DNA of 64,000 bases from contig CP084167.1 in NCBI GenBank assembly GCA_021513715.1, forward strand, positions 3,072,001 through 3,136,000. The letters run 5' to 3'. A model generated the notes under the pieces. That model was given only the letters and a program-made list of their open reading frames with translations. It made no database searches and was not told the origin of the DNA. This document shows, piece by piece, positions 7,664-11,546 of this stretch. Made by a program: the position numbers and the translations under genes. This DNA comes from Candidatus Heimdallarchaeum endolithica (GTDB taxonomy: Archaea; Asgardarchaeota; Heimdallarchaeia; Heimdallarchaeales; Heimdallarchaeaceae). The number at the start of each line of letters is the position of its first letter. Position 1 is the stretch's first letter.

Positions 7664-8329
7664 ATGACTTTATATTCCTCATTTGTAGACAGTTTAATCA
7701 TTTATATAACTGAAGGAATTGCATTATCATTGTTTGTTTGTACTTTCTTTATTAAAAAGAGAAAAATTAGAAAAATAATTAATAGTGTAGGTGGAGGATT
7801 GATATTTATTCTATTTGTTTTCGGAATATTTTACGATCTTAAAGGTTTTTTAGTCTTGTATTCACTTTTGACAATAATAGTTTTGCTTTTAAAAATGATA
7901 ATCGAAGATAAAAGAGTAAAATATATATGGCTTACACTCGCCTCTTTTGTTTTAACAGCTTTTAGTGTAGAAACACACCTAGAAATAATGTTTTTGTTGA
8001 GTTTATGTTTAAGTATTATTCTATTTTTATCATTTACAGCAGTTTCATACTATGAAACAAGTAAAAGAAAAAGAACTGAGAAAGAAGAATTTAGTGTTTT
8101 TTCATTGATTCTAGAAACAATTTTTTCTCTGTTCCTATGTGCTCCACTTGTTTTTTTAATTGTAACCTATGACTATTCTCAACAAAGTGTTAATCTAGTA
8201 AAAGAAGTAATAAACACTGGGATAGATGGAAATTTGACCATAATTCTTGGACTTTTCCTGATAATGTTTGTTTTCTTGTTTATTTATGACTTTGTAGAAA
8301 ATAGGAGTGAAAAAGAATGGTATCAGTAG
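7664..8329 (+). CDS. Membrane protein, possibly degenerate NuoJ-like
   Basis: About 6-7 TM helices. Position and topology match NuoJ, but the conserved NuoJ motif is not recognisable. Confidence 0.45.
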   Translation: MTLYSSFVDSLIIYITEGIALSLFVCTFFIKKRKIRKIINSVGGGLIFILFVFGIFYDLKGFLVLYSLLTIIVLLLKMIIEDKRVKYIWLTLASFVLTAFSVETHLEIMFLLSLCLSIILFLSFTAVSYYETSKRKRTEKEEFSVFSLILETIFSLFLCAPLVFLIVTYDYSQQSVNLVKEVINTGIDGNLTIILGLFLIMFVFLFIYDFVENRSEKEWYQ

Positions 8330-8583
8330 AAATATACTTCATTTTATGTTTAATTATAATATTCATAGGTTTAATAACTTTTAAACACTATTTAGCAAAT
8401 ATTAAATTTATTTATGGAGTAACAGTAATTTATATTGGGGCTATTTGTCTCTCATTTCTTCTTAATAATGTAAAAGATGAAATCATTTTTGTGTATACTG
8501 GAATATTCTCGATTTTAATATTGATTTTGTTAGCAATAAAGTCACCTGTGTTTGAAGAAAAAGTAAAGGAGAATAGACAATGA
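8317..8583 (+). CDS. Small 3-TM membrane protein, NuoK/MrpC-like (degenerate)
   Basis: 88 aa with 3 TM. N-terminus MVSVEIYFILCLIIIFIGL resembles NuoK. Overlaps its neighbours. Confidence 0.5.
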   Translation: MVSVEIYFILCLIIIFIGLITFKHYLANIKFIYGVTVIYIGAICLSFLLNNVKDEIIFVYTGIFSILILILLAIKSPVFEEKVKENRQ

Positions 8584-9035
8584 GTAAAAATGAAAGAATA
8601 GTTGAGAAGAAAACTGAAGCAGTATCAGTAACAGAACAAGCAGTAACAGAAGATATGGAAGCGAAAGAAGAAACTTCAAAAAAAGTTGAAAAAGAAAGAA
8701 AAAGTGAATCCCTTGCTTCTAAAATAAAAGAGAAAACGATTAAATTCTTAAATTATCTTTTTGTAACTATATTATACCTAAAGATTATCAAACCCACTTT
8801 TTATGGCTTAAAAATAGGTACAAGTTTTCTGCTAAATTTAGGAAAAAACTTTTTTGCAATCTCTTCAAAGTTTTTTTACAAATTGTATATAGTTGCTAAA
8901 AGAAACATGGAAGAATTATCTTTCTTTGTTCACAGATTTGAACGAGCACCACTTAGTCTTCAAGTATGGATAACAAGTGTTTTTGTTTTTCTATTGATTT
9001 CAATATGGATAGCTTTCGGGGGTAGACTAGAATGA
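8580..9035 (+). CDS. Membrane-associated protein resembling only the C-terminal lateral helix and last TM of NuoL
   Basis: Charged N-terminus, long amphipathic helix, and HRFERAPLSLQVWITSVFVFLL resembling the NuoL tail. Confidence 0.4.
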   Translation: MSKNERIVEKKTEAVSVTEQAVTEDMEAKEETSKKVEKERKSESLASKIKEKTIKFLNYLFVTILYLKIIKPTFYGLKIGTSFLLNLGKNFFAISSKFFYKLYIVAKRNMEELSFFVHRFERAPLSLQVWITSVFVFLLISIWIAFGGRLE

Positions 9036-10510
9036 TCTTTTGGACAATTACAGGAATATATCTCTCAGGAATTTTAATTATTTTCACTTTAGAAAGGTTA
9101 TCTCACTTTATTACAAAACTATTCCCACTATTAAGAGGAAGAATGAGAATTGTTTTTAATTATGTTAATATATTAATTATAATTTGCGCATATATTGTAT
9201 ATTTATATACAGTACATCCTTTTAGTCAGAGTACAGAAGTCTTTGATAAATTTGTTTTTTCACCTTTTTCAAGTATATTTCAAGCTATATCAACTCTTTT
9301 AATCTCACTTACAGGCTTTTTCCTCTTATCAGATGTTGATGAATATAGTAATAAGAGTAAAATAAGTTTTAGTTCATTACTCTTTATACAATATTCTGCA
9401 TTTATTATGTTTTCAGCTATCTCTTGGATTTTTGTTTATTTAGGATTACTAGGTATAATCTCTGGAATAACTTTTATCTTACGAAACATCTATCTAAAAG
9501 AGAATGAAGTAATGAAAGAGCTTCATTCTTTATTTGTGTTTGATGTTTTAAGTTTAGTTTTCCTTTTTATGGGTATTTTATTCTATAATTTGGTTTTTAA
9601 CTCTTTTATAATTCAAACAAATGTAAGAAGCGATTTCTGGGAACTGGAATTGTTAAGTTTCATATTTATACTTTGTTCCAGTTTAATTCTCCTTGAAATT
9701 CCTCCATTTCACTTTAGAAGTTTTTCTGAAATAAATAAAAAACTAAAAACTCCTAAAATTATAACTTTGTTAAAAAAACTAGTTGGTGTGTTTATCATTC
9801 TAAATTTGGTACGTGTAATAGACTTAAATTCCGATTACACGCATTTTTACTTTTTTATTCTTTTGATTCTGGGAGGTATAGTCTCGACATGGGGAGTAGT
9901 TGGAGCAATAAATAAAATGAATATTGATGAATTGCTTGTGTATATTGATTTCTATTATCTTGGTACATTCCTGCTGTTATTATCTAACAATTTTTCTTCA
10001 AGTGCAACTTTTTCTTCAAGAATTGAAAATTATTCAGTACTATTGTTTTTGACCATATTCTTCTTTCTTGTACAAATAGCACAAACAAGTTTGATGAGTT
10101 TGATCTCAAATAAATATTCTATCGATTCTTTAGAAGATTTCTTAAAGGGTGAAAAACTTGAAAAAATAGAAATTTTTCCTTTTACAATCTTACAATTTGC
10201 TGAAATAAGTTTTCCCTTAGCTTTGTCCTATGTATATATCTTTTATTTAAATTTTGAAGAAATAGCAATGCTGTTTTTCATAGTTCTTATATCTGTTAGT
10301 TCACTAAACTTTTTCTTTGGAATATTAAGCGTTATTAGGACAATGTTTTATGCATTGAAAGAAACTTCATCACTTCTAAACGACAAGCGAGTTGAACCAA
10401 ATCTATATATTACAAGTTTTATTTCTTTACTTATTCTTATATTTAACGTGGTTTTCGTAAAGGAAATAGTGACTGTATGTCAAAAAGCAGTTTTTCTATT
10501 TCTATTTTAG
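9032..10510 (+). CDS. NuoN/MrpD-like antiporter-fold membrane protein (degenerate)
   Basis: 492 aa, about 14 TM. EIPPFHF corresponds to the NuoN K-x-G-x-x-PFHFW motif. Confidence 0.6.
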   Translation: MIFWTITGIYLSGILIIFTLERLSHFITKLFPLLRGRMRIVFNYVNILIIICAYIVYLYTVHPFSQSTEVFDKFVFSPFSSIFQAISTLLISLTGFFLLSDVDEYSNKSKISFSSLLFIQYSAFIMFSAISWIFVYLGLLGIISGITFILRNIYLKENEVMKELHSLFVFDVLSLVFLFMGILFYNLVFNSFIIQTNVRSDFWELELLSFIFILCSSLILLEIPPFHFRSFSEINKKLKTPKIITLLKKLVGVFIILNLVRVIDLNSDYTHFYFFILLILGGIVSTWGVVGAINKMNIDELLVYIDFYYLGTFLLLLSNNFSSSATFSSRIENYSVLLFLTIFFFLVQIAQTSLMSLISNKYSIDSLEDFLKGEKLEKIEIFPFTILQFAEISFPLALSYVYIFYLNFEEIAMLFFIVLISVSSLNFFFGILSVIRTMFYALKETSSLLNDKRVEPNLYITSFISLLILIFNVVFVKEIVTVCQKAVFLFLF

Positions 10511-10562
10511 TAGTTTTTGACAATAGGCAAGTTTTTTTAAATACCAAAAAAAATTCTCTATA

Positions 10563-11546
10563 ATGTTTTCTCCCACGAAAAAACTAGATGTAGAGAAAGA
10601 TATAGAAGAAATAAATAATGAACTTGTCAAATTAAAGGATAATGCGCCCTACGATGAAGAAATAGTGAACTTAATAGATGAAGTAATTGAAACTGGAGGA
10701 AAACGAATAAGACCATTAATAACTCTATTATGTTATGAAATGTTCTCTAATAAGAAGAGAAATAACACAATTTTTGCCGCAGCTTGTGCAATTGAAATAA
10801 TTCATAATGCAAGTTTATTAATAGATGATGTCTTTGATAAAGATATTTTTAGAAGAAAGAAAAAGTCCTTTTATCTAAAATTCTCAACTTTCTCTGCTAT
10901 ATCCATGTCGTATTCTTTAAGTAGTTTAGCTTTTGGTTTAGCTCTAAAAACAAAATTGTTAGAAATTGTAGAAGAACTTACAAAAGCAACTCAAAATCTA
11001 GCTGTTTCTCTATTTCTTGAACAAAAATTCAGAAATGCAACAACAAAAATGACAAAAGAGGAAGCATTACTATTAATAGACAGAAAAACTACCACTTTAT
11101 TTGAAGCAGCTTCAGTAATAGGTGTGTTGTTAGACCAAGCAACACAAGAAGATAGAGAAAAAATGAAAGAATTTGGTAAATATTTTGGTAGAGCTTTTCA
11201 ATTGAGAGATGATTTGCTTTCTATTATTGCTACAGAAGAAGAAATAGGAAAAACAGGTGTAATAACTGATATAAAAAATAGAATACAATCGTATATTATT
11301 CTTGTAGCAATGGAACAAGCAGTAGAAGAAGACAAAAAGAAATTGGAAGATTATTATATAGAGAAAAAGGAATTTGATGTTGAAGAAATAAGGTTTTTAA
11401 TAAAAAGGTCTGGTGCAGTAAGTACAGTAGTAAAACTAGTAAATGAATATATTGAAAGAGCAATGTCAATATTGAAAAGTTATCCTGAATCTATAGCAAG
11501 AAACAAATTGATAGAAATAACTCGATTTTTAAGTTTAAATTTATGA
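10563..11546 (+). CDS. Polyprenyl diphosphate synthase (probably medium/long chain)
   Basis: GGKRIRP, HNASLLIDDVFD (FARM with Ala at -5), RR, KT, FQLRDD. Confidence 0.9.
   Translation: MFSPTKKLDVEKDIEEINNELVKLKDNAPYDEEIVNLIDEVIETGGKRIRPLITLLCYEMFSNKKRNNTIFAAACAIEIIHNASLLIDDVFDKDIFRRKKKSFYLKFSTFSAISMSYSLSSLAFGLALKTKLLEIVEELTKATQNLAVSLFLEQKFRNATTKMTKEEALLLIDRKTTTLFEAASVIGVLLDQATQEDREKMKEFGKYFGRAFQLRDDLLSIIATEEEIGKTGVITDIKNRIQSYIILVAMEQAVEEDKKKLEDYYIEKKEFDVEEIRFLIKRSGAVSTVVKLVNEYIERAMSILKSYPESIARNKLIEITRFLSLNL

Follow-up and report, generated by a model that had tools for sequence, protein, structure and literature searches.

A putative descendant of the complex I membrane arm in Heimdallarchaeaceae, with a charge-depleted NuoN-like subunit and a stand-alone NuoL-like tail in Heimdallarchaeum

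The distal membrane arm of complex I (NDH-1) is built from NuoJ, NuoK, NuoL, NuoM and NuoN (ND6, ND4L, ND5, ND4 and ND2), and in this complex helix HL and the transmembrane helix TM16 of NuoL have an established role as a strap. Mrp antiporters (MrpA to MrpG) and the Mrp module of Mbh and Mbs likewise assemble antiporter-like with NuoK-like subunits, and do so without a quinone or NADH module. The Heimdall class is the Asgard class closest to eukaryotes. For this class, Appler et al. (bioRxiv 10.1101/2024.07.04.601786) describe a complex-I-like group-4 [NiFe] hydrogenase whose arm is shortened. Here we examine a module of four overlapping membrane-protein genes, A221, B88, C151 and D492, that stand in the same order as the genes of the complex I arm, in a 64,000-nt window (G000:C1:3072001-3136000; the whole stretch of DNA that was analyzed) from the 3.33-Mb single-contig genome of the Heimdallarchaeaceae member Candidatus Heimdallarchaeum endolithica; coordinates are window positions unless another locus is named. 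Profile comparisons and gene neighborhoods indicate that the module descends from such an arm, firmly so for its N- and L-like members and moderately for its K-like member.

All four genes lie on the forward strand. A221 (7664–8329) encodes a 221-aa polytopic membrane protein with about seven predicted helices at the position of nuoJ; B88 (8317–8583), an 88-aa NuoK-like subunit with three transmembrane segments (TMs) that lacks the TM2 and TM3 Glu; C151 (8580–9035), a 151-aa stand-alone remnant of a NuoL-like gene; and D492 (9032–10510), a very divergent 492-aa antiporter-like subunit of the NuoN/ND2 type. In the list of open reading frames (ORFs) the consecutive overlaps measure 13, 4 and 4 nt, and the genes are translationally coupled. 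A preliminary description of this DNA, which had reported four overlapping intact membrane ORFs here and read them as a catalytically stripped derivative of the complex I arm, is confirmed on the first of these points; the second needs to be taken subunit by subunit.

We begin with D492, for which the relationship is visible only to a profile. As a single sequence it matches no Pfam family at E ≤ 1, reaching no gathering score, and no structure in the Protein Data Bank (PDB); its match to the NCBIfam NuoN model has an E value of only 0.25, yet runs collinearly along the whole protein. When 1.84 billion representative proteins were searched exhaustively with a profile, only about a dozen relatives emerged. 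The profile of this family (13 members) matches PDB structures over residues ~80–480 of D492, including NdhB (6.5e-21), plant Nad2 (3e-19) and E. coli NuoN (8e-17), as well as the Mrp-related subunits MbhH (4.6e-15) and MrpD (1.6e-10). In addition, three of the 13 members individually pass PF00361 (Proton_antipo_M), the best of them at 1.3e-11. On the strength of the significant profile matches and of these three members, we regard homology of D492 to the NuoN/ND2 type as established at the level of profile comparison.

At the position of C151, sister genera of the family carry full-length L-like genes of 631–663 aa (~650 aa), the family profile of which matches NdhF (5.5e-19) and NuoL (7e-14), with the N-terminal region included. 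C151 aligns with the C-terminal ~100 residues of these genes (hhalign E 0.003), with which it has in common an invariant S...E...Q motif and a K-I-I-x-P segment. When a hidden Markov model (HMM) was made from the L-like tails, excluding sequences of this genus, C151 was its sole match genome-wide (E 0.009, among 22,531 ORFs of at least 40 aa). Hydropathy and hydrophobic moment divide the protein into a hydrophilic N-terminus of ~55 aa, a Lys-punctuated amphipathic lateral helix (residues ~55–120) and a last TM (~125–148); the 14-TM antiporter core is missing, with only the hydrophilic stretch ahead of the tail. The ratio of nonsynonymous to synonymous substitution rates (dN/dS) is 0.19 in the tail part vs 0.57 in the new N-terminus. 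The tail alignment, the sole HMM match and the tighter constraint on the tail all argue that C151 is, as had been proposed, a NuoL-like tail, equivalent to helix HL plus TM16 and produced by a genus-specific truncation.

The gene neighborhood points to where the module came from. Downstream of D492 lie a polyprenyl diphosphate synthase gene (10563–11546, forward strand; Pfam 2e-49) and, convergent to it, two tandem inositol-phosphate synthase paralogues (11636–13800, reverse strand; Pfam Inos-1-P_synth), which serve as synteny markers. The prenyl synthase, a conserved neighbor on the downstream side of nuoN throughout the order, scores 168 bits against PF00348, for which the cut-off is 27, and carries DDVFD at residue 88 within a DDVFDKD-type motif. 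In sister families of the same order, a canonical nuoH-J-K-L-M-N operon adjoins this same prenyl synthase neighborhood. At one such locus (L093), the gene immediately after nuoL-M-N encodes a prenyl synthase (38% identical, with the same DDxFDKD motif), and orthologues of both inositol-phosphate synthases (68% and 51% identity) come next; at others the prenyl synthase comes directly after nuoN (L096), ahead of nuoH-J-K-L-M-N (L095) or 3.4 kb after nuoN (L092). Given these shared neighbors, the divergent operon appears to occupy the ancestral nuo locus and to be an in-place descendant of the complex I arm.

The likeness of B88 to NuoK is weak but specific. Members of its family (88–95 aa) show three hydrophobic segments and align by hhalign with two separate NuoK alignments in the same register over TM1–2, with P values of 5e-5 and 8e-4 (probabilities of 67% and 24%), where NuoJ and NuoH controls gave P values of 0.13–0.5. 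Matches in the PDB are weak (E 0.06–6) and comprise MbhD, NdhE, ND4L and NuoK. At the aligned position of the TM2 Glu there is a Thr, and semi-conserved acidic residues are confined to the beginning of TM3, in keeping with the earlier observation that the K-like protein has no membrane Glu. Derivation of B88 from a complex I arm is, on these comparisons, moderately well supported.

For A221, only position and size suggest NuoJ: the gene sits ahead of the K-like gene, and its product is comparable in length to the NuoJ of sister families (206–215 aa). We aligned positional orthologues from 14 loci, and the resulting family profile matched nothing in the PDB; A221 matches no Pfam family, PF00499 included, and hhalign of its family against NuoJ, NuoH and NuoK likewise gave nothing (probability ≤ 1.3%). 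A Foldseek search of the A221 model against the PDB returned only matches with E > 1 (rhodopsins and designed helical proteins), NuoJ and ND6 standing at ranks 13 and 19 with an uninformative TM-score of ~0.3, and in the ESM Atlas the scores were at chance level (≤ 0.80). A221 is a family-specific protein. Of the complex I derivation put forward in the preliminary description, the N and L parts stand firmly and the K part moderately, whereas the reading of the first gene as NuoJ has neither sequence nor fold behind it.

What has become of the charged residues was read from an alignment that sets the D492 family beside canonical sister-family NuoN and NuoM. Of six charged relay residues examined, D492 has lost five (one Glu and four Lys): the TM5 Glu and TM7 Lys (which we take to be E133 and K217 of E. 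coli NuoN) are both replaced by Leu, the TM6 Lys by Ser and the TM11 Lys by Gln, and the TM12 Lys has no equivalent (a gap or Tyr in this genus). The sixth, the TM8 Lys, is retained as K249, in a column that is K or R throughout the family, and the TM7 His is retained as H227 in the sequence PPFHF, corresponding to the broken-helix P-F-H-x-W motif. The TM5 Glu and TM7 Lys are both missing in 10/10 divergent N-like sequences aligned; the TM12 position holds K, R or E in several N-like proteins of sister genera. The loss of the TM5 Glu and TM7 Lys alongside a kept PFHF, noted before, therefore stands in a proper alignment with sister-family NuoN. The broader term 'catalytically stripped' gains from the additional loss of the TM6, TM11 and TM12 Lys, but goes too far with respect to the TM8 Lys and TM7 His that remain.

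To place the module in its lineage, we searched 400 Asgard genomes with the N-like profile. Matches at E < 1e-129 are confined to Heimdallarchaeaceae, where they occur in 27 of the 30 genomes; outside the family, matches are at 1e-32 or weaker, and those inspected are canonical NuoN. Gene content was compared by genus across 16 fetched family loci. Three genera (g3, g4 and g5) have A (~226 aa), B (~93 aa), a full-length L-like gene and then the N-like gene. A fourth (g2; genome G011) has an extra 495-aa gene between the L-like and N-like genes, which passes PF00361 (4.7e-9) and is most similar to canonical NuoM. In the genus of the window (g1) only the 151-aa gene stands between B and the N-like gene, and the reported absence of an M-like gene is thus correct here. 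The arm accordingly seems to have been reduced stepwise, with L-M-N in one genus, L-N in most genera and L tail-N in this genus.

Throughout this series the genes evolve under constraint. Comparison with the sister species Candidatus Heimdallarchaeum aukensis PM71 (locus L003) yields dN/dS values of 0.15 (A), 0.14 (B), 0.33 (C) and 0.13 (D) at dS 0.6–1.1, and four further species pairs give values of 0.09–0.33 for A, B, L and N; over all five pairs, dS ranges from 0.3 to above 1. The four genes are real, under purifying selection and not pseudogenes, which was also the view taken before. At the same time, the identity between genera is about 25% for the membrane genes vs 57% for the neighboring prenyl synthase, and about 65–84% for the two inositol-phosphate synthases.

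The preliminary description had proposed looking for nuoA-I or a hydrogenase module elsewhere in the genome, and both a complex-I-like hydrogenase and an orphan nuoBCDI cluster were found. Only two PF00361 genes are present in the genome, both in an operon of the nuoH-A-J-K-L-N type, nuoH-A-J-K-L(597 aa)-X(520 aa), at G000:C1:2475373-2485242 (L034:9374-19243), beside hypE, hypF and hycI and with NuoC-, D-, I- and B-like genes divergently transcribed next to it. Its 520-aa X is of the MbhH/N type, and the operon is of the complex-I-like group-4 [NiFe] hydrogenase type already described. The single NuoH of the genome sits in this operon, away from the divergent module, and across 17 loci we found no NuoH, NuoA or NuoB/C/D/I redox-module genes at the divergent locus. 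The orphan nuoB-C-D-I cluster lies on the reverse strand at G000:C1:~660500-663000 (L060:8522-10992), with no membrane subunit genes nearby. Members of the MqnA/MqnD family (futalosine route to menaquinone) were not found in the genome.

Three side observations concern these other loci. The N-type subunit of the hydrogenase arm has Thr instead of the TM7 Lys and no PFH motif. Upstream of the hydrogenase cluster, a gyrase A gene (L034:29-2737) shows, near its N-terminus, a weak match to an intein-splicing domain (8e-8, below the Pfam cut-off). H. aukensis has an extra 10-kb nuo-like operon (L100:10184-19606; G015:C1:2760183-2769605) that comprises J-K-B-C-D-H-I and three antiporter-like genes; it is missing here, and blastn similarity ends just before it.

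The history that we favor starts from a nuoJ-K-L-M-N locus of complex I, which in Heimdallarchaeaceae would have lost nuoH along with any connection to redox-module genes. The remaining J, K, L, M and N genes would have diverged very fast, past the reach of Pfam; M would then have been lost in most genera, and the L core then deleted in this genus, leaving the lateral helix and the last TM. The four products would still come together in the manner of complex I, the N-like subunit lying beside the K-like and A proteins and strapped by the free L tail, a role suggested by that of HL and TM16 in NuoL together with the low dN/dS of the tail part. Such an assembly would work without drive from a Q site and without canonical redox-driven proton pumping. 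With neither the input Glu/Lys pair in the N-like subunit nor the Glu residues in the K-like one, canonical proton pumping has very probably ceased. Judging from sequence comparisons, we consider it reasonably probable that the module forms a self-standing, non-canonical, non-redox membrane assembly, and in this genus it is most likely a structural or otherwise repurposed one. We put forward only tentatively the further-reaching proposal that in Heimdallarchaeaceae the complex I pumping arm became a new membrane machine independent of redox chemistry, found in its minimal form in this genus as a charge-stripped NuoN, a NuoK-like protein, an unrecognizable seven-helix protein and a free NuoL strap.

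A number of results weigh against the history and assembly that we favor, and the residues among them lead directly to a first competitor. On the structural side, the AlphaFold2 (AF2) model of D492, made from 3 sequences, is unusable at pLDDT 37, and that of A221, made from 14, is weak, with pLDDT 59 and about seven helices, so that the models lend support neither to the assembly nor to a fold for A221. On the phylogenetic side, a maximum-likelihood tree of antiporter-like subunits sets the divergent N and L clades on separate long branches and inside none of canonical N, L and M; since a tree with such long branches is uninformative, orthology rests on best hits and synteny. As for the residues, TM8 is invariably Lys or Arg in the N-like family and the TM7 His is kept, and D492 has two further Glu, one in TM7 that is specific to this genus (E222) and one that is invariant (E455), so that some ion pathway through D492 may be conceivable. 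Moreover, the L-like subunits of sister genera retain an invariant TM7 Lys and a near-invariant TM5 Asp, and with these the module there may still move ions. The module could, in that case, still be ion-translocating, as a Mrp-like secondary cation/proton antiporter or a channel with rewired residues and no redox module. The charged TM12 residues of several sister-genus N-like proteins would fit, as would purifying selection on all of the genes and the confinement of PF00361 genes to the hydrogenase arm, which leaves the genome with no canonical Mrp. Set against this, the entire L core is missing in this genus, D492 is without five of its six relay residues and the K-like protein without both Glu; the gene order is nuo-like rather than mrp-like, and no MrpE, MrpF or MrpG was noticed at the locus, where no search aimed at these families was made. 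On balance, we hold an ion-translocating module to be unlikely.

The genome's other complex-I-like genes raise a different prospect, namely that the four proteins are accessory subunits docking on the arm of the group-4 [NiFe] hydrogenase (H-A-J-K-L-N type) or on the orphan NuoBCDI. That arm has only two antiporter-like subunits, the orphan cluster is without membrane genes, and the hydrogenase-type large subunit occurs in nearly all family genomes. However, J, K, L-type and N/MbhH-type subunits are already present in the hydrogenase arm, and the operon in sister genera is self-contained, with its own K-like gene, a full L with lateral helix and, in one case, even an M-like gene. Close orthologues of the orphan NuoD (~80% identity) are found in about 12 of the 30 family genomes, vs 27 of 30 for the module. 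Two specific pairings were rejected on these grounds: D492 as the missing NuoN of the hydrogenase-type arm, whose second antiporter-like subunit is already of the MbhH/N type, and the module as the partner of orphan nuoBCDI, the two being differently distributed across family genomes. We judge docking to be quite improbable overall. Finally, extreme divergence, the successive disappearance of M and the L core and the extra-long stem that leads to the N-like protein of this genus in the tree might be taken to mark functionless relics heading for loss, but with frames intact in 27/30 genomes and at least five genera, low dN/dS in five independent pairs, conserved overlapping start and stop codons and a C151 tail more constrained than its new N-terminus, we give this idea very little credence.

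Turning to the surroundings of the module, the locus is collinear throughout between the window and H. aukensis. Directly upstream of A221 lie genes for two paralogous anchored surface proteins of 275 and 449 aa (5417–7594, forward strand), each with a signal peptide and a C-terminal anchor and without a Pfam family; the pair is restricted to genera g1, g2 and g5 of the family. The second of them has a ~190-aa PKD/Ig-like insertion in this genus, vs a ~260-aa form elsewhere. Between the two Heimdallarchaeum species, the 69-nt spacer ahead of A221 (7595–7663) shows 95% identity, a conservation well above that at synonymous positions in the genes on either side (dS ~0.8). It contains three T5 runs and, after them, ~30 nt ahead of the ATG, a TATA-like TTTTTAAG; a TATA-like box is also present in the 52-nt gap between D492 and the prenyl synthase. 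From the T-runs ahead of A221 and the TATA-like boxes in both gaps, the four membrane genes may form a transcript of their own, possibly separate from the surface-protein pair, and the prenyl synthase probably has its own promoter. A scan for sigma-70 promoters and terminators gave chance-level counts, under a bacterial model that is not applicable to archaea.

Two points concern the downstream markers themselves. The preliminary description had assigned the prenyl synthase a long-chain-type first aspartate-rich motif (FARM), but this is not diagnostic: the small residues ahead of DDxxD are identical in the two prenyl synthases that the genome encodes, so that the chain-length rule does not separate them and chain length is unreadable from sequence. 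At L093:5890-8036, the inositol-phosphate synthase pair is on the nuo strand, and the paralogues are an old pair.

The module also bears on how such genomes are read. Standard annotation misses it, as the window's four proteins have no Pfam match and some sister-genus copies just pass PF00361, and metabolic reconstructions of Heimdallarchaeaceae therefore count only the 'shortened' complex-I-like arm. The history outlined above would mean that the membrane arm of complex I can persist once its redox partner is gone, change quickly while still constrained, and be whittled down one subunit at a time. The free L tail offers a natural experiment on the long-debated role of HL and TM16, as structural strap or as coupling rod. 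Should the module indeed be a new machine, it would amount to a natural dissection showing that the lateral helix and TM16 are selectable alone, and would point the way to a role of antiporter-like proteins outside bioenergetics in a Heimdall lineage; a new function of this kind would widen the known roles of these proteins. If the module instead still moves ions, it would show which canonical residues are dispensable.

It remains to set the module beside the systems introduced at the outset. Its likeness to the complex I arm extends from gene order to the full-length profile homology of the N-like and L-like proteins, the size and 3-TM layout of the K-like protein, the correspondence of C151 to HL plus TM16 and the synteny of the locus with sister-family nuoH-J-K-L-M-N. 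It differs from complex I in that its locus is without NuoH, NuoA and the Q-module, in the absence of M and the deletion of the L core in this genus, in the loss of most N relay residues and of both K Glu, in a divergence too great for Pfam and in a first gene unrecognizable as NuoJ. Compared with Mrp, the best matches of the module are of the NuoN/ND2 and NuoL/NdhF types rather than MrpD or MrpA, its order is J-K-L-(M)-N and not A-B-C-D-E-F-G, and Mrp keeps the Glu/Lys set that the module has lost. The Heimdallarchaeia group-4 [NiFe] hydrogenase is canonical in sequence and linked to its catalytic module, whereas the divergent operon is a separate locus without a redox module; we found no mention of this operon in our searches of the preprint of Appler et al. 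(bioRxiv 10.1101/2024.07.04.601786), and our literature search found no published description of the module. Precedents for antiporter-like proteins outside a redox pump are DabB, of DAB carbon uptake, and cyanobacterial NdhD3/F3 with CupA, and the L-like profile does match DabB2 (1.1e-6). Those proteins have a known catalytic partner and keep the charged network, whereas we found no such partner for the module. What is new here is the synteny link to the canonical nuo locus, the series leading from L-M-N through L-N to tail-N, and the genome-wide test for a free L tail.

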